Part shown: positions 7,731-62,395 of the stretch, one piece after another | How positions within the stretch are numbered: position 1 is the stretch's first letter | Layout: every line of letters begins with the position of its first letter | Notes under the pieces: model-generated | Told to the model about the DNA's origin: nothing | What the model saw: the letters and a program-made list of their open reading frames with translations, nothing else | The model's database searches: none | Made by a program: the position numbers and the translations under genes | Assembly: GCF_004010195.1 (NCBI RefSeq) | Contig: NC_057749.1 | Coordinates: 17,207,658 to 17,271,657, forward strand | Reading direction: 5' to 3' | DNA length: 64,000 nt | Source of the DNA: Chiloscyllium plagiosum | Lineage: Eukaryota

Positions 7731-9505
7731 CACCCACGCCCTTCAACTCCTCCAAGACTTCTGTTTCCCCGGCCCACAATGCCTCATCTTCACCATGGAT
7801 ATCCAATCCCTCTGCACCTCCATCCGCCATGACCAGGGCCTCCAAGCCCTCCATTTCTTCCTCTCCCGACGTCCCCAACAGTACCCTTCCACTGACACAC
7901 TCATTCGTTTGGCTGAACTGGTCCTCACCCTTAACAATTTCTCCTTCAAATCCTCCCACTTCCTCCAGACCAAAGGGATAGCCATGGGCACCCATATGAG
8001 CTCCAGCAATGCCTGTCTCTTTGACGGCTACGTAGAACATCCATCTTCCGTAGTTACACTGGCACCACTCCCCACCTCTTCCTCCACTACATTGATGACT
8101 GCATCGGCACTACCTCGTGCTCCCGCAAGGAGGTTGAGCAGTTCATCAACTTCGCCAACACATTTAACCCCGACCTTAAATTCACCTGGACCATCTCTGC
8201 CACCTCCTCCCTTTCCTGGACCTCTCCATCTCCATTAATGACGACCAACTTGACATTGACATTTTTTACAAACCCACCGACTCCCACAGCTACCTGGATT
8301 ACACCTCTTCCCACCCTACCTCCTGCAAAAATGCCATGCCGTATTCCAAATTCCTCTGCCTCTGCCATATCTGCTCCCAGGAGGACCAGTTCCACCACAG
8401 AACACACCAGATGGCCTCCTTCTTTAGAGACTGCAATTTTCCTTCCTACGTGGTTGAAGATGCTCTGCAAGGCATCTCATCACATTCCGCACCTCCGCCC
8501 TCAAATCGCACCCCTCCAACCGTAACAAGGACAGATTCCCCCCTGGTCCTCACTTCCAAGCCTACCAACCTTCGCATAACTAGCATCACCTGCCGACAAA
8601 CGGACCCCACCACCAGGGGTATATTTCCCTCCCAACCTCTTTCCGCTTTTCGCCAAGACCGTCCCTCTGAGACTACCTGGTCAGGTCCACGCCCCCCTAC
8701 AACCCACCCTCCCCCCTACAACCCACCCTCCTATCCTGGCACCCTCCACTGCCACTGCGGGAATCGCAAAACCTGTGCCCACACCTCCCCCTCACCTCCA
8801 TCCAAGACCCCAAAGGAGCCTTCCACATCCATCAAAGTTTCACCTGCACATCCACCAATGTCATTTATTGTATCCGTTGCTCCCGATGCAGTCTCCTCTA
8901 CATTGGGGAGACTGGACGCCTCCTAGCAGAGCGCTTTAGAGAACATCTCTGGGACACCCGCACCAATCAACCCCACCGCCCTGTGGCCCAACATTTCAAT
9001 TCTCTTTCCCACTCTGCGGAGGTCCTGGGTCTCCTCCACCATCAATCCCTCACCACCCGATGCCTGGAGGAAGAACGCCTCACCTTCAGCCTTGGAACAC
9101 TTCAACCCCAGGGCATCAATGTGGACTTCACCAGTTTCCTCATTTCCCCTTCCCCCACCTCACACTAGTTCCAACCTTCCAGCTCAGCACTGCCCTCATG
9201 ACCTGTCCTACCTGCCAATCTCCATTCCCACTTATCCCCTCCACCCTCCCCTCTGACCTATCACGTTCATCCCCACCTCCATCCACCCATTGTACTCTTT
9301 GCTACCTTCTCCCCAGCTCCTCCTCCCCCCGCCCCCCCACTTTTCTCTCCACCCTGGAGGCTCCCTGCCTCCATTCCTGATGAAGGGCTTTTGCCCGAAA
9401 CGTTGATTTTTCTGCTCCTCGGATGCTACCTGACCTACTGTGCTTTTCCAGCATTACTCTAATCTAAACTCTGGTTTCCAGCATCTGCAGTCCTCACTTT
9501 GCCTT
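7731..9505 (+). mobile_element. 5'-truncated, frameshifted PLE (RT + GIY-YIG endonuclease + pseudo-LTR)
   Basis: MDIQSLCTSI and GIAMGTHM RT motifs, YIDD near 8088, GIY-YIG NVIYCIRCSRCSLLYIGETGR near 8857-8920; terminus 9372-9505. Confidence 0.93.
9373..9408 (+). ncRNA. Minimal hammerhead ribozyme in PLE pseudo-LTR
   Basis: attc-CTGATGA-A-GGGC-TTTT-GCCC-GAAA-CGTT-gatt. Confidence 0.75.
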
Positions 9506-13850: not shown

Positions 13851-16541
13851 AATTGACTTGAATTGAATTTATTGTCACGTATACCGAGGCACGGTGAAAA
13901 CCTTTGTCTTGCGAGCAATACAGGCAGATCACATAGTTAAGTAGCGTAGATAGTAAATAATAGATAAACAGTGGCAAAAACAAAAACACAGGTACAGGCA
14001 AATGTTAAGAGTTTATGAGTCCATTCAGTATTCTAACAACAGTCTGTTAGAAACTGATGTGAAACCGGCTGGTGCGTGTGTTCAGGCTTCTGTACCTTCT
14101 CCCCGATGGTAGCGGTTGTAGAAAAACAGTGGGATGGATTTTTGAGAATGCTGGTGGCCTTTCCTTGACAGTGGGCCTGGTAGATGGATTCTATAGATGG
14201 AAGGTTGGCCTTTGTGTTGTCCGGGCTGAGTTCACCACTCTCTGTAACCATCTCCGATCTTGAATGGTGCAGATGCCATACCAGGTAGTGATGCATCCAG
14301 AGAGAATGCTCTTGATGGCGCACCTATAAAAGTTGGCAAGAGTATTCACCGTCATGCCAAATTTCCTCAGCTGCCTGAGGAAGAAGAGACGTTGTTGAGC
14401 CTTTGTAACCAATGCAGTCACATGAAGAGTCCAAGAAACATTGTTGTGGATGATCACTCTCAAGAGCTTGACAATCTCCACTTGTTCCACCTCTGTGCTG
14501 TTAATGTGTACGGGAGCATAAGTAGCATCCCGATGAAAGTCAATAATAAGTTCCTTGGTTTTGTTGGCATTGAGAGCTAGGTTGTTCTCAGTGCACCACT
14601 TTTCCAGGTCTTCCACCTCCCATTTATAGTCTGTTTCATTGCCATCTGAGATTCGACCAACTATGGTGGTGTCATCAGCGAACTTGTAAATGGCATTAGT
14701 CTGGCATTTAGCGACACAGTCATGGGTATACAGTGAGTACAGTAGGGGGCTGAGTACGCACCTTTGGTGGGGGGGGGGGCTCTAGTGTTGAGTGTTAGTG
14801 AGGATGAAATATTGTCCCCAGTCTTCACTGATTGTGGCCTGTTGGTCAGGAAACTAAGGATCTAGTTGCAGAGAGTGGGGCTTATTCTGCGATCACTAAG
14901 TTTAGTAATCAGTGTTGAGGGGATAATAGTGTTGAAGGCTGGACTGTAGCCAATAAGTAGGATTCTTATATAGCTGTTCTTGGTGTCAAGATGTTCGAGG
15001 GAGGAGTGAAGGGCAAGTGATATGGCATCTGACGTAGATCTGTTGGTCTGATAGGCAAATTGGAGTGAGTGAAGAGTAGTGGGGAGGCTGGAATTGATTA
15101 ATGCCATGACTGGCCTTTCAAAGCACTTCATGACCACCGAAGTCAATGACTACCACTGGGCGGTAGTCATTGAGACATGTTGCATGAGCCTCCTTAGGCA
15201 CAGGGATACTGTTGGCCCTCTTGAAACAGGCAGAGACAGTGGCCTGCTGCAGGGAGAGGTTGAAGATATCCGAGAAGACCTCTGCCAGCTGATCTGCGCG
15301 TGTTCTGAGTGCATGGCCTGGTACGCCATCTGGCCCCATTGCTTTCCTTGGATTCACACGAAGGAAAACTGATCTGACCTCTGATGCAGTGACTGTTGGG
15401 ACAGGCTCGTCAGGACTTGTTGGAATAGGTGTTACCTCTCCGCTGAAATTCTGCTCAGAGGTATTGAGACGACCTGGGAGGGATATGTCATCATCTGCTA
15501 TCATGCACTGCCTCTTTTTTAAAACCTATGATGTCCTTCAGCCCTTGCCATAGTTGCTGGGTATTGGTCCTTGGCTGTCTAAAATGTTCCTTATTTTTGA
15601 GTGGGTCTCCTGATCTGAAGGCCTGACGCCTGGTTTTTAGCTGGTTCTGTATGTCCTGATTCACCCAGGGTTTCCTGTTGGGGAACACTCGGATTGACTT
15701 CCTCAGTACGCAGTCCACTACACACTTGCCGATCAAGTCTGTGACAGTGGTGGCATACTCGTCCAAGGTGCCTGTGGACTGTTTGAACATGGCCTAGTCA
15801 GCCAATTCCAGACAGCAACGGAGTTGATCCTCTGCCGCCTCTGACCAGCACTTGACCTCTATCCGCGAGGGGGGTCTCCTGCTTGACCTTTTGCCTATAA
15901 GTCGCAAGAAGAAGCATGGCTCTGTGGTCGGAGTTCCTGAAATGAGGGCGAGGGATGGAGCGGGTAGGTATCCTTTACAGTGGTGGGGCAGTGGTCTAAA
16001 ATGTTCGGGCCCCTGGTGGGCAGGTTCTGGTGGTACTTGGGAAACACATTCCTTAGATTGGCTTGATTGAAGTTGCCAGTTACAATAAACAGGACTTTGG
16101 GGTGTTCCGTCTTCAGCGTGTTAATGGTGGAGTACAGCACAGCCTCAACCTTTGCTTGTGGTGGTATGTATAGTTAGTATTGCAGCAGTAAATTCCCATG
16201 GTAGATAGAAGGGGCGGCATTTGATGGCGAGGAGTTCAATCGTTGGGGTTGCAATGTACATGCACCACCAGTTGTTTAAAAAGCAAACCCCCTCCACCCT
16301 TTGTCTTACCTGAGGATGCTATGCAGTCTATATGATGGATAGAAAAACCATCAGCCTGAAGTGCGCAGTCGGGAGTGGATGGGTTGAGCAGGTTTCTGTG
16401 AAGTAGAGTACGCAGCAGTCCCATAGCTCATGCTGAAAGCTGTGCCGTGATCTGAGTTCGTCCATCTTGTTGTCCAGAGACTGTACATTTGCTAGGAGTA
16501 AGTTAGGAAGGGGGAACCTTGAAACTGCGTAGTCTCAGTCT
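13851..16541 (-). mobile_element. Rex1/Babar-type LINE (APE + RT), frameshifted, inserted in CR1
   Basis: CLNDYRPV, TSVVMKCFER, QFAY.NRSTSDAI, KAQQRLFFLRQLRKF, SGCITTWYG; (CAATT)n-type tail near 13851-13870; TSD tatattg at 13844-13850 and 16542-16548. Confidence 0.9.
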
Positions 16542-24653: not shown

Positions 24654-25863
24654 GTTGTGGAGTATAAGATCATAAAGACACAGAATTTATAGCAAAAGTT
24701 TACAGTGTGATGCAACTGAAATTATATTTGGAAAAGACCTGGATTGTTTAAGTCTCATCTTTTAGAATGTCCATGCTGGTTTCAGTTCCTTCATATGTAA
24801 ATCCCAAAACTTTTTTTAAAAGTTACATTCTCAAGTGAACTTTAACAATAGGTGCCATGTCGGCCCAGATAATGCTTTGAAGGTGTGAGGTGCCCTGTGT
24901 GAGGCTGTCTGTGCCCCACTGTTCAGACTGAGCCAATTTCTTTAAAAAAAAGGGAATTTACAGAATCTTACATGGATTCATGCAGTTTTTGAGCAAAATA
25001 AAATGTAATTCTGCAAGTACAAATTCATCTCACAAACTTATGTGCGTGCGGGGGCATCGTGTATGAATATTTGAGAGCGAGTGTGTGAATGCGTATGTGA
25101 GAGTGTAAAGGGGTATGTGAGAGGGTGCTTGTGTGGGTGTGTATGTGTGAGCATATGAGAGAGAGCTTGTGTGTGAGAGAAGGTTCAGCATGAGCATATG
25201 GGTCTGTAGGAGTATATGTGTGTGTGTATGTTGCAGTGGAGTCACCTGTAGTGTGACGTGAATCCAAGGTCCCGGTTGAGGCTATCCCCATGGGTACCGA
25301 ACTAAGCTATCAGCCTCTGCTTGGCCACTTTGCATTGTTGCCTGTCCCGAAGTCTGCCTTGGAGGATGGTCACCCGAAGGTGTGAGGTCGAATATCCTGG
25401 ATCGCTGAAGTGCTCTCCGACTGGGAGGGAACATCCTGTCTTTTGATTGTTGTGCAGTGTCCATTCATCCGTTGCTGTAGCCTCTGCTTGTTCTCGCCAA
25501 TGTACCATGCCTCAGGCCACCCTTGCCTACAGCGTATGAGATAGACAATGTTGGCCGAGTCACATGAGTACCTGCCATGTACATGGTGGGTGGTGTCCCC
25601 ATGTGTAATGGTGGTATCTGTGTCAACACTGACACATCTTGCAGCATCTGGAGTGGCAAGGTTGTATGGTGTTGTCCTGAAAGCCAGGCAGTTTGCTGCA
25701 AACAATGATCTGTTTGAGATTTGGTGGTTTAAAGGTGAGAAGTGGAGGCGTGGGGAAGGTCTTGGTGAGGTGCTCATCCTCATTGATCATGTATTACAGG
25801 TTGCGAAGAACATGGTGTAGTGTTTTGACTCCTGGGAAATACTGGACAATGAAGAGTACCCTT

Positions 25864-26411
25864 TAGAATGTGTATAGGGTATAAGCAGGCAGGGAAAGAG
25901 TTAAGTTCTGAGTTTTGTGAAAAGTTCAGCTGAGCATGAATCAGATCAGATGAGAACTTGTAGTTAACAATGGGGTGCTGAGGGCAAGGGTAATGGGTTA
26001 ACAAGATGGAAAAGCATTCATTATGTCAAGCCATTTAACAATATTGGAAGCATTCAGTATGCAAGGTCAGCTAACAAGGGGAAAAGTATCCATTGTATGA
26101 ATCCAATTAACAAGGTTAAGAGCATTCATTGTATGACAGTAAAGGACTTGGTCTCTGCCATTAATACTCGTTGATTGTAACGGTCACCCATTTAATATGT
26201 ATGTTACCTTATCTGGATATTCTTCCCTTTTAAAATTACTATATAATTCATTGAGAAACTGTTCTTCCAGAGAAGATCGTGAACTTGTGTCCCTGTGCAC
26301 ATGGGCTATTATTCTCTCTCCCTCCAGGGCCAGGAATAAAGATGAAGGAGCTAAAATTATGCTGTGTCTCTGAGCGTTTTGCTTTGACTGGGGTGGGGGA
26401 ACAGGATGACA
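25864..26411 (+). mobile_element. Solo LTR (548 bp) with 4-bp TSD
   Basis: T(G)AGAATG...GACA ends; TSD cctt at 25860-25863 and 26412-26415; TATATAA 26240-26246; AATAAA 26335-26340; homologous to the reverse complement of 57611-58143. Confidence 0.88.
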
Positions 26412-52779: not shown

Positions 52780-54730
52780 CTACATAGCCAGGAGGAGAAG
52801 GGAAGCGTTCATAAGGTCTAGGCAGCTAAGAACAGAATGGGCCCTGGAGGAATATCGGAAGAGTAGGACAAGTCTTAAATGAGGAATCAAGCAGGCTGAA
52901 AGGGGTCATGAAATAGCTTTAGTGAGCAGAATTAAGGAGAATCCCAAAGCATTTTATTCTTATATAAGAAGCAAGCAGGTAACTAGAGAAAGGATTGGTC
53001 CACTAAAGGATAATGAAGGAAGGCTGTGTGTCAAACCTGAGAGAATGGGTGAGATTCTAAATGATTACTTTGCATCAGTAAGAAACATGATGAAAGGAAC
53101 ATGATGAATCTTGAGATTAGAGATAGAAGTTTGATTAGTCTGGATCACGTTGACGTAAGTGGGAAGGTGTGTTGGATAGGCGAGAGGTTACTAAGATTTA
53201 CAAATCCCCAGGACCGGATGGGATCTATCCCAGGTTGCTGAGGGAGGTGAGAGAGGAAATAGCTGGGGCCCTGACCGATATCTTTGTGGCATCCTTAAAT
53301 ACAGGTGAGGTGCCAGAGGACTGGAAGGTTGCTCATGTCCCCCTGTACAAGAAGGGTAGTAGGGATATTCCGGGTAACTATAGACCAGTGAGCCTAATGT
53401 CAGTGGTGGGAAAGTTGCTGGAGAGGGTACTGAGGGATAGGATCTATTTATATTTAGAAAAGAATGGGCTTCTCAGTGATAGGCAACATGGTTTTATGTG
53501 GGGGAGATCATGCCTTACCAACTTAATAGAATTCTTCAAGGAAGTATCCAAGTTGATAGATGAAGGGAGGGCGATTGATGTCGTATATATTGACTTTAGT
53601 AAGGCATTTGATAAGGTTCCCATGGTAGACTAATGGAGAAGGTGAAGTCACATGAGGTGCAGGGTGTTCTAGCTAGGTGGATAAAGAACTGGTTGAGCAA
53701 CAAAGAGCAGTAGTTGAAGGGAGTTTCTTGAAATGGAGAAAGGTGACCAGTGGTGTTCCACAGGGGTCAGTGTTGGGGCCACTGTTGTTTGTAATATACA
53801 TAAATGATCTGGAAGAGGGCACTGTTGGTATGATCAGCAAGTTTGAAGATGACACAAAGATTGGTGTAGTAGCAGAAAGCATCAGGGACTGTCAGAGAAT
53901 ACAGGTGAATATAGACTGGAGAGTTGGGCGGAAAAGTGGCAGATGGATTTCAATCCAGACAAATGAGGTAATGCATTTATGCAAGACTAATTCGAGAGTG
54001 AATTATACAATGAACGGAAAAGCCTTGGGAAAAGTTGATGGACAGAGAGATCTGGGAGTGCAGGTCCATTGTACCCTGAAGGATACTGCACAGGTGGATA
54101 GAGTGGTCAAGAAGGCATATAGTATGCTTGCCTTCATTGGACAGGGTATTGAGTATAAGCGCTGGCAAGTCATGTTAAAATTGTGCAAGACATTGGTTCG
54201 TTCTGGTCGCCACATTACTAAAAGTATGTGGACGCTTTGGAGAGGGTGCAGAATAGGTTTACAACGATATTGTCTGGTATGGAAGGTGCTAGCTATGAAG
54301 AGGCGTTGAGTAGGTTAGGTTTGTTTTCATTAGAAAAAAAGGAGATTTAGGGGGGACCTGATTGAGGTTTACAAAATCATGAAGGGGAGAGACAGGGCGG
54401 ATAGAGACCAGCTTTTTCCCAGGGTGAAGGATTCAATAACGAGAGGTCACGCTTTCAAGGTGAGAGGTGGAAAGTTTATGGGGGATACACGCGGCAAGTA
54501 CTTCACACAGAGTGTGGTGGGCGTCTGGAACGCGTTGCCAGCAGAGGTGGTAGAGGCAGGCACGATAGATTCATTTAAGATGCATCTGGGCAGATGCATG
54601 AGTAGGTGGGGAGCAGAGGGATACAGATGCTTAGGAATTGACTGACCGGTTTAGACAGTACATTTCAATCGACTGAGGCTTAGAGGCTGAAGGGCCTGTT
54701 CCAGGGCTGTAAATTTTCTTTGTCCTTTGG
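52780..54730 (+). mobile_element. CR1 LINE nested in an older CR1 (~52470-52780, ~54740-54930)
   Basis: KSPGPDGIYPRLL, GNYRPVSL, SGVPQGSVLGPLLF, 3' tail. Confidence 0.93.
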
Positions 54731-56074
54731 AATTCATGGTATGCTATTGAGGTCATGTATTAGAATGGATTGATAATTGTTTAACACACAAGATGCAGAA
54801 CCATGATTACTGGGTCTTATGCAAGCTGGAAAGACTTAGCTGTGGAGTGTTACAAAGGAGAGTGCTAGGTCCTCAATTTGGAGAGTGCTAGGTCCTCAAT
54901 TATTTACTATCTGTGTTAATGACTTGAAGGAGTGGACATCATACAAGATCCCAGTTTCTATGGAAGCAGAGATGAGCAAGAATGGAGGAGGAACATTAGT
55001 TTAATTTTTCACATGCTTACTGCCTCTCCAGCTGCTTTATGTTCAGTTTTGTGTTTATTATTAGAACTATAAATTTCTTTGTTTTCTCAAGTACTTTTAT
55101 CTCATTGTCTGGAAAAAGTTGGTGTTGAGGTACATACCTAATTGTGGTCTTATGGGTTATTTTCACCTTTCTAGATTTTGAAAGTGAGATCAACTCTCAA
55201 AACAAATTCCAAACTAAATTCAATATACTGTCAAACAAAGATTTGAATTTTAGTGTAGCTCTATTTAACAATCTTGGTCAGAGTGTTTTTCTCTGCTGGT
55301 GGCATCTCTATTCAGAATGATGCAATTGCTCATTTCTAAAATAGAATTTTCAAAATAGTTTTGCTTGAGTGTCTTATCATGACAGTTTTGATAAATCATT
55401 GAAGTCTGATTTTTTTTTTTACAGAATCATCTCTGTGTATATTAGCCTAGTTCTGATGTGTTACCGTGCTATCTGCTTTTGTACTCTCAAGAAGGGACAG
55501 AAAAATTCATAACACACAGATAGTCGTACACTAGAGGAATTTAGGATTGAAAGACATCTGAGGGTCTTTGCGAATAGCATTATGTAAAGCATGTATGGAG
55601 GAAATTAGAACAGCCCTTGTAGAATGTCGGAAGCTTGTGTATTTTACTGAATGCCAAGGGCAACAATCACCTACTGAAATTTCTGCCTCAAACTGAAGGG
55701 CAGGTTGTAGATTGTGGTGACTGGTAGCTGAGAGTTTCCGTGATACATTGATCTTTCCCAGAGGAATTGTAGCTTGTTCTAAGTAGTGCAGATTGTTCAT
55801 TGGTCTGTCTTCATTTCATTTTCTTGCCCTCCATAATCTTCCTCAGTGTTAATAATATTTTCTCTATCACATAATATTTCTGTTGAAGAGTTAGACTATG
55901 TATTCCATCTACTGTCTCACTTGTAACAGTAGTTGGCAATTATTCTGTAGGTGCATGGGTAGAAGGACTTCATCCATAAATTCTTATACCCATATATTGG
56001 CTGTGGTATAAAGGGAGCAAAAATAATAAATGTATTGCCAAGCATATTTAAATAAATCTTTACCATGTAAGCAA

Positions 56075-56840
56075 TTAGCAGGACTTCTACACTTAATGGT
56101 AAGGTCATAGGGAGTGTTGCTGAACAAAGAGACCTTGGAGTGCAGGTTCATAGCTCCTTGAAAGTGGAGTCACAGGTAGATGGGATAGTGAAGAAGGTGT
56201 TTGGTATGCTTTCCTTTATTGGTCAGAGTATTGAGTACAGGCGTTGGGAGGTCATGTTGCGGCTGTACAGGACATTGGTTAGGCCACTGTTGGAATATTG
56301 CATGCAGTTCTGGTCTCCTTCCTATCGGAAAGATGTTGTGAAACTTGAAAGGGTTCAGAAAAGATTTACAAGGATGTTGCCAGGGTTGGAGGATCTGCGC
56401 TACAGGGAGAGGCTGAACAGGCTGGGGGTGTTTTCCCTGGAGCGTTGGAGGCTGAGGGGTGACCTTATAGAGGTTTACAAAATTATGAGGGGCACGGATA
56501 GGATAAATAGACAAAGTCTTTTCCCTGGGGTCAGGGAGTCCAGAACTAGAGGATATAGATTTAGGGTGAGGGGGGGAAAGATATAAAAGGGACCTAAGGG
56601 GCAACATTTTCATGCAGAGGGTGGTACGTGTATGGAATGAGCTGCCAGAGGAAGTGGTGGAGGCTGGTACAATTGTAACATCTAAGAGGCATTTGGATGG
56701 GTGTATGAATAGGAAGGGTTTGGAGGGATATGGGCCGGGTGCTGGCAGGTGGGACTAGATTGGGTTGGGATATCTGGTCGGCATGGACAGGTTGGGCCGA
56801 AGGGTCTGTTTCCATGCTGTACATCTCTGTGACTCTGACT
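56075..56840 (+). mobile_element. Young CR1 3' fragment
   Basis: 148-aa open ORF2 segment 56140-56586 plus tail. Confidence 0.95.
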
Positions 56841-57610: not shown

Positions 57611-58143
57611 TGTTGTCCCGGTTCTCCCCTCAGTCGAAATAAAATGCTCAGAGACACTGTATAATTTTGCCTCCCCCGTCTTTTTTCTGGGCCCTGGAGG
57701 GAGAGAGAACGATTGCCCATGTGCACAGGGATATGAGTTCTTGGTCTTCTCTCTTGTACAACAGTTTCTTTATGAATTATATAGTTATTTTACAGGGAGG
57801 AGCATCCAGATAAGGCAACATAGATATTGATTGGGTGACCATTACAATCAGCAAAGACTTAGCCATCTGCTGTTACAGAATGAATGTTCTTAACCTTACC
57901 TGGCTTCACATATGAATACTTGTAACCTTGTTAAACTGACCTTACAAAACTGAATGCTTCCAATATTGTTAAATGGCTCTACAGAATGAATGCTTTTCCA
58001 CCTTGTTATCTATTACCCTTGCCTCCAGCATCCCATTGTTAACTGCAAGCTCTTATCTGATCTGAGTCATGCTTAGTTGAACCTCTTGTTTTATAAAACT
58101 CAGAATTTGACTCTTTGCCTGCTTATACCCAAACACATTCTCA
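57611..58143 (-). mobile_element. 3' LTR of an LTR retroelement
   Basis: TGAGAATG...CAACA on the minus strand; homologous to the solo LTR 25864-26411; TATA box at ~57777-57784. Confidence 0.88.
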
Positions 58144-58155
58144 TTCTCTCCTTTT
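58144..58155 (-). other. Polypurine tract
   Basis: Minus strand AAAAGGAGAGAA directly abuts the LTR TG. Confidence 0.8.
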
Positions 58156-58174
58156 ATCATTTCATGATAACCAC

Positions 58175-58330
58175 CTAGATGGCACTACCAGCTTTCATAA
58201 GACTCTGACAGCCAATATTTAAGCAGGTTATTGACACACAGCATGCAATGGTGATAACAAAAAATACTAGTCAGTCACAGTAATTAGAGTTTGAAGAATC
58301 CTCCCACTTGGGAAAAAAAATTCATCAGTG
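58175..58330 (-). pseudogene. Possible retroviral env membrane-anchor remnant
   Basis: GRILQTLITV, frameshift, then LVFFVITIACCVSITCLNIGCQSLMKAGSAI* (58270-58175), ending just upstream of the polypurine tract. Confidence 0.4.
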
Positions 58331-58509
58331 AAGCTCTTAAATCCACAGTCTTTAGTGACCACTCCATCCCTTCCAAGTCGAGTGGAAATAAGCCAGTTCT
58401 CTGCAAATTTCCTTCAGTAAAATCCAACCTGAAAACAAAATCTAGTCTGTCCTTCCGCGCCACTCCACGGAGAAATCTGAATTCTTGGATCAGGGCAGTT
58501 AAATACTTC

Positions 58510-58819
58510 ACAAAACTGATGAGACTTCCATCCTTCTGGAGATGCTTCAGATGGAGAATACCAGCGCATCTGAGCATTTGGTGCAGCAGCTGCAGGCTCG
58601 GTGAATGCAGCATTCTTTGCTGCATCTGCTCCCGTTCTGCTGTTAAATGTAACAAAGCCAACTGGCTGATTTGATGTTGGCTTGATCAGTGAACCTTCAT
58701 ATCCCTTAAATGATCTAAAAACAAGGTAAAGTTCACGTGGTTTAATGTCCACAGGAAGACCACTGATGAAGCATACTAACCTCCTCTTCACTGTTGTTAG
58801 CTTCACTTTTCATGCTCAT
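58510..58819 (-). pseudogene. RBPMS2: Processed, internally deleted RBPMS-family (RBPMS2/hermes-like) retrocopy
   Basis: [14 protein letters not shown], frameshift, then [87 protein letters not shown]; no introns; stop codon lost. RBPMS2 versus RBPMS is less certain than the family. Confidence 0.9.
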
Positions 58820-60149
58820 GACTAGGGAGTTGATTGAATCCATTGGATCAGGTTGTGGAGGGGTGGGCGGTGGTCCGAAGGCGTGCTTTACCTGTGAATG
58901 GAGAAACTCTAGCGAAGATTTTAGTTGCAGGAAGTATCTTTGTATTTCCCCTCTCATTCCTTCTTTGCCAAGGTGGTTGTCAGTATGATGATAGTCGCAC
59001 ATTTAACTACACTAAAGTGTGTGTACCTATTTCAACATTCTCAGTCGTTTTGACGTCTGTTAGTCTGTTCACTATTTATGACATTATCAAGTTTTATGCA
59101 ATCCATAAACTTATAAATTGTACTGCCTAAGCAATTCAGTCAATTATAAACAACAATCAATGGTCCTAAAGTCAAACCCTCTGGTACCTCACTCAGGTTA
59201 TTCAAAAATTATTTTCCTTTAACAAATTGATACTTGGCTAACGTGAAAGCAGGAAGAGTATTTTGAAAGTCTGGAACGGCAAGAAAACAACAAAATGTTT
59301 CCTGTACTTTAGCAATTGGAGAGGCAGTTTCAGTTCAGATTTAAATCTCAAATATTCGTGGAAAACAAATGCTGAAAATTTTAAAATTTGTTATCCAAAT
59401 GAAAGTTCACAAATAAAACTGTTGGAATTACGGTGGCAACTTTGGTTGAGATCAACATTCTTTGACTTTGCAATATGAAGAGGGCCAATGAAGTCTTAAC
59501 AATAATTGAAAGAATTTAAATGGCTCAGCCTAAAGTTCTAAAATTCTCTAAGATCTTAACAAAACATCAGACTCTAAATACACACTTTTTGTGAAAACTC
59601 TGCATTAAAAACATAGTAGCAAATATAGTACTTTAATATAGTACTTTCATCTGGCTAAAGCATGACCACTAACCCAACTATGTTTTTTTAACAGGCATTA
59701 TAGAATTTCAAACAAATCAGAGGCTCAAGGCATTCAATCATTTTGTTTTAAGGTTACAAGTTTGATAATTTTGAAAAGGACATTGTACAATTTCAATGTA
59801 AGAACAAAATCTAGCCCATTACATAGCCCACAAAACACATTGAATTGAGATTCTGATTCAAACAGGGCAAAACAATTATTTAAAATGATTTTCTGAACCA
59901 GTATTTTAACAAACCGGTATTTTTAAACATCAAACACTCTGAGCATGGCACAATTTACGTTGAAACTTGCCTTTTTCAACCCAAGTATTAGTACAACCTT
60001 AATTTGTGGTTTTCATTTTTATCGACCTATTTATCTACTCACTGAAATTACACTTAAAAAGAGATAGCCCTAGTGGTGAGCCACGTGGCGCCACAGTCCA
60101 ACCCACACTCTTTTTTTTTTTCCCCCCCCCTCCAGAACAAAGACTTGCA

Positions 60150-60489
60150 GAGGCTCAAATTTTGCACGAGGGGACTTTAACCCTTTCTCAATTTACTCCT
60201 CTCAAGGGCTCGAACCCCATTAAACCCAGAGAATGTGAATCCCAATTAAATACAGAGAGCTTCAATCTCACTTAAACACAGAGTTTGAACACCAGCACAG
60301 CGCGGAGGACTCGAACCCCAATCAAACCCGCTCAGGAGACTTGAACCTCAGTATCGTGCAGAGGACTCGAACCTCAAACAAACCCAACCAGGGGAATTGA
60401 ACCCCAGTATTGCACAGAGGACTCGAACCTCAATTATTCCCCATCCGGGGACTTGAACCCCAAAACTGCGCAGGGGACTTGAACCTCCC
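60150..60489 (-). repeat. Tandem array of B-box-like motifs (GGTTCRAGTCC) with a 56-bp dimeric period
   Basis: Plus-strand motif starts 60172, 60206, 60231, 60257, 60281, 60307, 60337, 60363, 60393, 60419, 60449, 60475. Confidence 0.88.
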
Positions 60490-60620
60490 CCTACAGCAAA
60501 TGTACTACAGTGGTTCAAGAAGGCTACTCATCCCCACTTTTTCGAGAGCAGCTAGGGATTGGCAATTATTTCTAGCCCAGCCAGTGACACTTGCACCCCT
60601 GAATGAATTTTTAAAAATAG
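60490..60620 (+). mobile_element. Old CR1/L2-clade LINE tail, right part
   Basis: cctacagcaaatgtactacagtggttcaagaagg... continues 57400-57610. Confidence 0.75.
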
Positions 60621-60769
60621 CTGCACTACGCTGCCAGCCTGCACTACTAACAGTCCTAAGTTAGTTGTCAGCACAATTGTTTGCGTACGCATTTGCACAA
60701 AAACATGAAGGAATCAAAGCTAATGCAAAATACAATCTCAGCTAATTCTCTTTACATCAAAACCCAGAG

Positions 60770-62395
60770 TCTACAAAGTCATAGAGATGTGCAGCATAGA
60801 AACAGGTCCTTCAACCCGTCTATGCCGACCAGATATCCCAACCCAATCTAGTCCCACCTGCCAGCACCCGGCCCATATCCCTCCAAACCCTTCCTATTCA
60901 TATACCCATCCAAATGCTTTTTAAATGTTGCAATTGTACCAGCCTCCACCATTTCCTCTGGCAGCTCATTCCATACGTGTACCACCATCTGCATGAAAAC
61001 GTTGCCCCTTAGGTCTCTTTTATATCTTTCCCCTCTCACCCTAAACCTATACCCTCTAGTTCTGGACTCCCCGACCCCAGGGAAAAGACTTTGCCTATTT
61101 ATCCTATCCATGCCCCTCAATTTTGCAAACCTCTATAAGGTTGCCCCTCAGCCTCCGACGCTCCGAGGGAAAATAGTCCCAGCCTGTTCAGCCTCTCCCT
61201 ATAGCTCAAATCCTCCAATCCCAGCAACATCCTTGTAAATCTTTTCTGAACCCCTTCAAGTTTCACAACATCTTTCTGATAGGAAGGAGACCAGAACTGC
61301 ACGCAGTATTCCAACAGTGGCCTAACCAATGACCTGTACAGCCTCAACATGACGTCCCCAACTCCTGTACTCAATACTCTGACCAATAAAAGAAAGCATG
61401 TCAAACGCCTTCTTCACTATCCTATCTACCTGCGACTCACTTTCAAGGAGCTATGAACCTGCAGTCCAAAGTTTCTTTGTTCAGCAACACTCTCTAGGAC
61501 CTTACCATTAAGTGTATAAGCCCTGCTAAAATTTCTTTTCCCAAAATGCAGCACCTCATATTTATCTAAATTAAACTCCATCTGCCACTTCTCGGCCCAT
61601 TGGCACATCTGATCAAGATTCTGTTGTAGTCTGAGGTAACCTTCTTCGCTGTTCACTACACCTCCAATTTTGATGTCATCTGCAAACTTACCAACTGTAC
61701 CTCTTATGCTCGCATCCAAATCATTTATATAAATGATGAAAAGCAGTGGACCCAGCACCGATCCTTATGGCATTCTACTGGTCACAGGCCTCCAGTCTTA
61801 AAAAAAAAACCCTCCACCACCACCCTCTGTCTTCTACCTTTGAGCCAGTTCTGTATCCAAATGGCTAGTTCTCCCTGTATTCCGTGAGACTTAACCCTGC
61901 TAATCAGTCTCCCGGGGGGAACCTTGTCAAATGCCTTACTGAAGTCCATACAGATCACATCTACTGCTCTACCCTCATCAATCCTCTTTGTTACTTCCTC
62001 AAAAAAACTCAATCAAGTTTGTGAGACATGATTTCCCATGCATAAAACTATGTTGACTATCCCTTATCAGTCCTTGCCTTTCCAAATACATGTACATCCT
62101 GTCCCTCAGGATTCCCTCCAACAACTTGACCAGTACTGACGCCAGGCTCACTGGTCTATAGTTCCCTGGCTTGTCCTTACCACCCTTCTTAAACAGTGGC
62201 ACCACGTTAGCCAACCTCCAGTCTTCCGGCACCTCACCTGTGACTATCAATGATACAAATATCTCAGTAAGAGGCCCAGCAACCACTTCTCCAGCTTCCC
62301 ACAGAGTTCTAGGGTACACCTGATCAGGTCCTGGGGATTTATTCACCTTTGTGTTTCAAGACATCCAGCACTTCCTCCTCTGTAATATGGACATG
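60770..62395 (-). mobile_element. CR1 LINE, 5'-truncated, frameshifted
   Basis: Consecutive minus-strand ORF2 segments from KSPGPDQVYPRTL through FADD to the tail. Confidence 0.95.

Follow-up and report, generated by a model that had tools for sequence, protein, structure and literature searches.

Tandem repeats occur in the leader of a zebrafish endogenous retrovirus (ERV), and to our knowledge fish and shark retroviruses are largely unmapped with respect to their packaging and dimer signals. GTTCRANNC is the B-box consensus of Pol III type 2 promoters, TFIIIC sites without an A box exist, and box B of brome mosaic virus is a T-arm mimic in an RNA that is not a tRNA. In gammaretroviruses, PMC5874298 describes several palindromic stem-loops as a general feature of dimer linkage, and the nucleocapsid protein of MoMuLV binds UCUG according to the relevant part of PMC7599994. 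Hairpins resembling tRNA T-arms are known as enzyme substrates: TRUB1 modifies GUUCNANNC hairpins in mRNA (PMC5340967, excerpt), and GUUCRA T-loop-like sites are modified by TRMT6/61A (bioRxiv 10.1101/202747, excerpt). The tRNA elbow itself is recognised by HIV-1 MA (PMC10424219, excerpt). The array of T-arm-like hairpins characterized here has no described counterpart among the titles and abstracts searched; its family may already be named in repeat libraries or supplements, which lie outside that scope.

The window (the whole stretch of shark DNA that was analysed, 64,000 nt) contains 12 hairpin units at 60170-60487 on the minus strand, each a 15-nt imperfect palindrome, with spacers of 9-19 nt. 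A unit consists of a 4-bp stem enclosing the 7-nt loop TTCGAG(T/C), and YCTG mostly comes next (367 of the 596 units anchored on the motif have it after the stem). The sequence GGACTYGAACC, at ≤1 mismatch, has 14 matches in the whole window, nine of them inside 60172-60485, where 1.37 would be expected by chance for the entire window; TRF reports a period of 56 with 3.3 copies at 60305-60487. The sequence-only reading had anticipated 11 or 12 units, and its positions and 26/30 spacing from 60281 to 60475 are borne out by the unit count. Its strict alternation of 30 and 26 bp describes the upper seven intervals but not the remainder: going down from 60475, the spacings are 26, 30, 26, 30, 26, 30, 26, 24, 26, 25 and 34, and siblings of the element vary, with periods of 31 and 46 nt and runs made up wholly of 26-nt spacings as well. 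Similarly, the recurrence of its motif is real as an array but not as an exact 11-mer, as GGACTCGAACC is present in only 3/12 units and the unit at 60281, with five mismatches to it, is a member of another unit class.

Three parts can be distinguished within the array, all on the minus strand. The 56-bp dimer part (60305..60487) holds seven units in 26/30 alternation with stems of the GAGG/CCTC and GGGG/CCCC types, and GTTCRANNC is fitted by 7/7. The three units of the 3' class (60229..60293) have a TCTC-like 3' arm and a B-box fit of 0/3. The last two hairpins lie at 60170..60218; the final loop, TTAAAGT, is also found in 23 of the 40 siblings where that hairpin was found, and is therefore not a T-loop. 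Over the whole array, eight of the 12 units fit GTTCRANNC and eight of 12 have all four stem pairs intact (Watson-Crick or G-U). The T-arm-like hairpins that had been read on the minus strand do read so on the sense strand of the host element. A tRNA-Lys gene called by ARAGORN at 60407-60500 was judged spurious, and nothing in Rfam reached gathering scores.

The array sits in the 5' leader of a non-coding LTR element of endogenous-retrovirus type, about 3.7 kb in length. Both the array and the DNA on its left side belong to repeats scattered through a 3.56 Gb genome, with at least 77 matches (40 of 1373 candidates scored) and at least 45 (40 of 764 scored). Along the minus strand of the window, sibling elements run LTR, primer site, leader, array, interior, polypurine tract and second LTR, an order that agrees with the retroelement leader proposed from the letters. 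Full elements are 3.7-3.9 kb long (three copies measured), with LTRs of about 535 bp and TG...CA ends, and the leader stretch from primer site to array is about 190-270 nt. The 18-nt primer site matches host tRNA-Ser(AGA). The junction of LTR and primer site has 108 genome matches at ≤1 mismatch, and that of polypurine tract and LTR has 139. Among 20 elements picked on their internal region, 13 keep the 5' LTR and leader, giving two TG...CA LTRs, and seven are without the upstream leader, a count on which no claim of reverse-transcriptase stops at the array is based. Target-site duplications of 4 bp were seen by eye in 5/7 insertions, with no match in L040 and L048. Paired LTRs differ by K2P 0.10-0.21 (five copies), and the measured copies are therefore old. 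In L016, about 1.8 kb separates two junctions of LTR and primer site, and the locus is a tandem or rearranged copy.

In the window, the 3' LTR (57611..58143, minus strand, about 533 bp, TG...CA), with a homologue in siblings on the upstream side of the primer site, adjoins the polypurine tract (58144..58158, minus strand). The non-coding internal region (58144..60169, minus strand) is about 80-85% identical in siblings; judging by stop-free sense stretches, the longest of which is 39-195 aa in 11 copies, neither gag nor pol was seen in the interior. A captured RBPMS/RBPMS2-like piece lies within it on the minus strand (58606..58820, approximate bounds), intron-less and with an incomplete RRM (PF00076, E-value: 4e-7; RBPMS2, E-value: 3e-24). 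This piece of the 5' mRNA is found family-wide, spread by the LTR element, and has stops or frame breaks in many copies. The window copy has retained its 3' LTR and is without the 5' LTR, the primer site and the first part of the leader. Non-element DNA (60488..60776) at the truncation junction matches no other fetched locus, and the junction recurs in two other organisms, on one contig each. The copy is truncated, dead and decaying neutrally, and is consequently of little importance for the host locus. A single-cell run sampled at 2% gave 53 aligned reads, all below 99% identity and outside the array, and is uninformative either way. Other elements were noted in the window: a solo LTR of the array-bearing family with a 4-bp duplication (25862-26406), CR1-like 3' ends bordering the element (about 56050-56840 and from 60777), a Penelope-like GIY-YIG piece (8671-9165, plus strand) and LINE reverse transcriptase pieces (14194-14781, minus strand, and 53677-54306, plus strand).

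Homologous arrays were found in 48 sibling elements, with 2-48 units each (median 10). These remain of 53 distinct elements, with overlapping loci of one element counted once, after dropping L069 and L065 (other subfamily, considered separately), L051 and L063 (downstream anchor absent) and L019 (zero units in the slice). Long satellite expansions of the array, with 34-85 detected units, are seen in L065, L027/L055, L029 and L051, the last with a series of 46-nt periods. One further candidate, L067, which had matched a three-motif pattern, was dropped as an unrelated satellite with no match to the element; its 24-25 nt satellite occupies 800-1600 of that locus, and some units contain GGTTCGAGTCC.

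Partners were sought by pairing primer-site and tract matches by eye, most pairs being 2-3 kb apart by that reckoning, and nine tract-side stretches were fetched. One of these is env-like, four match the non-coding family at length and four match only its final 30-70 nt. The env-bearing relative has a Ser primer site followed by about 10 matching hairpins, the array ending just before a gag-like frame. Its Env-TM-like text is broken across frames; a stretch at its 3' end presumably resembles an ISD, a CX6C motif without the third Cys is split over frames, and a Pfam GP2-like HR1-HR2 match (E-value: 0.0046) is below the cut-off. For gamma-type Env TM, the ISD and the CX6CC motif are defined in PMC9967133, as excerpted. 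A class I (gamma/epsilon-like) ERV assignment of the family is likely. A second subfamily (L069, at about 888-905, and L065) carries a pure 26-nt monomer array, and its primer site, partly deleted in L065, matches a host Arg-type tRNA with one mismatch, so at least one primer change has occurred in the family. The array thus occupies one leader position in three lineages, and because the env-bearing relative and the second subfamily also carry it, it is a trait of the family rather than a feature of this locus. As a separate observation, five host tRNA genes (L090, L097, L110, L122 and L126) have near-identical 3' ends with differing anticodon calls (Arg-TCG, Arg-ACG and Gln-TTG).

We predict, at a probability of roughly one half, that the array acts in cis as an RNA structure, a series of tandem dimerisation/packaging hairpins in the leader of the retrovirus-type LTR family. 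Two genomic RNAs would contact one another loop to loop and then zip into duplexes, and YCUG at the base of the stems would provide nucleocapsid sites in the fashion of the MLV signal. The non-coding family would retain the array as a signal for packaging in trans, with unit number drifting via slippage or template switching. Its position supports this reading, the array lying between the primer site and the gag position, where such signals lie. It is present with variable unit number in both the non-coding family and the env-bearing relative. Of the roles offered by the sequence-only reading, the packaging-type RNA signal is still the most plausible, carried by location and unit structure; the close fit of the loop to the T-loop consensus is left unexplained by it.

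The stems provide evidence from inherited variation, scored in 562 units of 48 elements chosen without stem information. Stem pair 2/14 is GC in 104 units, GT in 110, AC in 20 and AT in 263, while pair 4/12 is GC in 305, GT in 111, AC in 37 and AT in 59; the A:C counts of 20 and 37 compare with 69 and 63 when the arms are shuffled. For units of the 3' class, the closing pair (equivalent to G53-C61) is G-T in 74 units, A-T in 42 and G-C in 13, and is paired in 129 of 158, and the B-box C61 is kept by 22/172 units. As this class loses C61 yet mostly pairs via G-U or A-U, an RNA hairpin is favoured over a DNA B box. Thirteen stem forms are present in at least seven elements and eight of these are fully paired; among the five mismatched forms, three resemble single decay changes, and CTAC (11 elements) and GAGC (nine elements) are apparently inherited. 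By mutual information, two spacer columns are linked to column 2 more strongly than its stem partner, which comes third. The covariation goes back to a small number of ancestral changes that were then copied repeatedly, so its p-values cannot be counted as independent evidence. Paired changes could also arise without selection, by palindrome-repair mutation in DNA.

The covariation that had been suggested as a check is present at pairs 2/14 and 4/12, but the array in the window folds no better than shuffled sequences (z -0.72), and an isolated hairpin in a 75-nt context has a mean probability of 0.15 (202 units). Computed energies are -3.4 and -5.5 kcal/mol for the single hairpin vs -17.3 and -21.5 kcal/mol for a two-unit duplex; the extended duplex is far stronger because the loop UUCGAG is self-complementary. 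In our reading of these models, the units would pair with one another instead of standing as isolated hairpins.

Decay after insertion bears on a different explanation, in which one T-arm-like leader hairpin was amplified by slippage into a neutral minisatellite whose unit number and shape barely mattered. Motif bases were scored via a spacer anchor and spacer bases via a motif anchor in the 48 elements (a penultimate-spacer anchor, giving two rows only, was left unused). Minor-base rates at non-CpG positions were 179/1716 (10.4%) and 259/1716 (15.1%) for the two motifs, and 91/792 (11.5%) and 130/924 (14.1%) for the spacer (p 0.45 and 0.30). The sequence-only reading had named equal divergence of motif and spacer among siblings as the sequence half of a case against its proposal, and equal divergence is what was found. 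Its statement that the motif is better conserved than the spacers fails for sibling decay and survives between unit classes, where the spacers differ and the loop is mostly constant. Loop conservation has little power because the compared lineages are closely related (two relatives agree at 146 of 179 leader letters); leader identities to the family copies are unreliable, as alignments of 9-30 nt are included.

The CpG of the loop decays symmetrically. Among the 20 elements selected by their interior, it is found as CG 93 times, CA 62 times and TG 61 times, counts that take in a few matches outside arrays from truncated copies, and the spacer-anchored sets give 111 CA vs 116 TG. CA spares the B-box consensus and TG destroys it; loss of C56 is as frequent as loss of G57. 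The eight B-box-like loops of the window include four CA and zero TG, within chance (p 0.125). One orthologous contig has 23/256 differences in the array vs 8/312 in the flank (p 0.001), and in another the array is shorter by about one 56-mer. There is no constraint on the array once inserted. A neutral minisatellite accounts for all of these post-insertion data, and for the range of 2-48 units per element. However, decay tests register only what happened after insertion, when every model predicts neutral change, and the array has been kept at the same leader position in three lineages with inherited stem changes that mostly preserve pairing. We hold the minisatellite explanation to be the less probable of the two.

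The likeness of the units to tRNA T-arms leads to two further explanations. In one, which we regard as unlikely, the hairpins would do double duty: dimer hairpins would also be recognised and modified by host tRNA enzymes, with one Ser-primed lineage adding a repeated complement to the T-stem of its primer. In the other, the hairpins would be true T-arm mimics, either substrates of TRUB1 and TRMT6/61A or bound by a tRNA-recognising Gag domain, that mark the RNA for export, packaging or control of reverse transcription. In register, 14/17 positions agree between host T-arms and each of the two main unit types, and the closing pair is G-C in 117/141 and 85/102 dimer units. Several features argue against true mimicry. 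The stems are of 4 bp, vs 5 bp in the TRUB1 consensus as given in the excerpted source, and the fifth pair is T-T in 479/562 units (partly imposed by the detection anchors). The 3' class is without G53-C61 (G-C in 13/158) and the last loop is TTAAAGT. A D-loop partner for the elbow is absent, and m1A in the template would hinder reverse transcription. The mRNA sites of TRUB1 and TRMT6/61A, in the excerpts cited above, have the GUUCRANNC hairpin loop in common with the array, which differs from such mimics in being tandem, in its 4-bp stem and in the loss of G53-C61 in one class. True mimicry is, on balance, unlikely.

A primer activation signal would be a more specific use of the spacer: CTGCGCGG of the 26-nt unit can pair with the 5' T-stem strand of tRNA-Ser, a strand released when this primer tRNA anneals to its binding site. 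The pairing comprises eight Watson-Crick pairs at -17.5 kcal/mol with tRNA-Ser(AGA), which ranks first of 30 host T-arm variants of 13 anticodon types (a partial panel; next best -12.3 kcal/mol). The 8-mer, scored as CpG-tolerant, is present in 38/48 family elements and absent from both loci of the other subfamily, one of them Arg-primed. It was found post hoc, however, with a chance of 0.02-0.05 for an 8-nt match. The 8-mer is missing in the Ser-primed env-bearing relative, the full spacer is missing in 7/35 Ser-primed copies, and no complement matching the Arg-type primer was seen. The HIV-1 primer activation signal is likewise an 8-nt complement to the primer T-stem region, as given in part of PMC3675109; unlike it, the shark complement follows the primer site on its downstream side, occurs as a repeat and is not found in a Ser-primed relative. 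We consider this use of the spacer quite improbable.

A TFIIIC platform or barrier, in which clustered B boxes would act at the DNA level, had been the first proposal of the sequence-only reading and is now very unlikely. The array does share GTTCRANNC with Pol III type 2 promoters and A-box-less TFIIIC sites, in 8/12 window units and 196/562 sibling units. Unlike a type 2 promoter, it is without a nearby A box: the upstream search that had been advised returned none near the array (11-nt pattern, ≤1 mismatch), and one relaxed match lies outside the element, where 0.87 are expected. The consensus is lost class-wide with C61, loss of C56 is not disfavoured (62 CA vs 61 TG), and the outer-stem covariation is unneeded by a B box. 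Conservation in place is not seen either, the array being more diverged than its flank in the one orthologous contig scored.

A relic of repeated primer-tRNA copying, also raised from the letters and favoured by the T-arm likeness and an 8-nt antisense match to tRNA-Ser, is largely refuted and scarcely credible, because read-through would leave an antisense orientation, whereas the units are tRNA-sense (best 14/17, vs a best of only 10-12/17 antisense), tRNA-Ser is not their best T-arm match and they multiply in whole blocks of 26-56 bp. The array may still have been seeded by one early T-arm capture.

The family offers a natural series, in which coding and non-coding lineages have one 15-nt unit in 2-48 copies and have inherited stem variants with G-C, G-U or A-U pairs, and short in vitro tests can therefore be designed easily. 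If the T-arm likeness is functional, it would be a new retroviral use of tRNA mimicry; if the hairpins do double duty, a packaging or initiation signal would consist of tRNA mimicry and not of dedicated hairpins.

Based on location and unit form, the tandem dimerisation/packaging hairpins predicted here are best compared with the gammaretroviral signal. The stem-loops of MoMuLV (SL-A to SL-D) and RD-114 (psl-1 to psl-5) likewise lie between the primer site and gag, as described in parts of PMC5874298 and PMC7599994. Both have short palindromic stem-loops, hairpin-to-duplex potential and YCUG adjoining the stems. In contrast to the four or five distinct hairpins of the gammaretroviral signal, the shark array repeats one unit 2-48 times, and in place of the GACG tetraloop it has the 7-nt TTCGAG(T/C) loop. 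GACG is not among the 12 commonest array loops, while TTCGAG(T/C) loops are found in 48 and 39 of 48 elements. The array would act like a gammaretroviral dimer signal, we infer, yet, as its loops do not show the GACG hallmark, it is not filed as a member of that class. The element itself resembles non-autonomous ERVs that keep only cis signals (PMC8672886, excerpt) and may be compared with the shark ERV lineages of PMC4422223 (excerpt). Like such non-autonomous ERVs, it is non-coding, with LTRs, an 18-nt primer site, a polypurine tract, 4-bp duplications and an env-bearing relative; unlike them, the array family carries a host RBPMS-like fragment together with the hairpin array.
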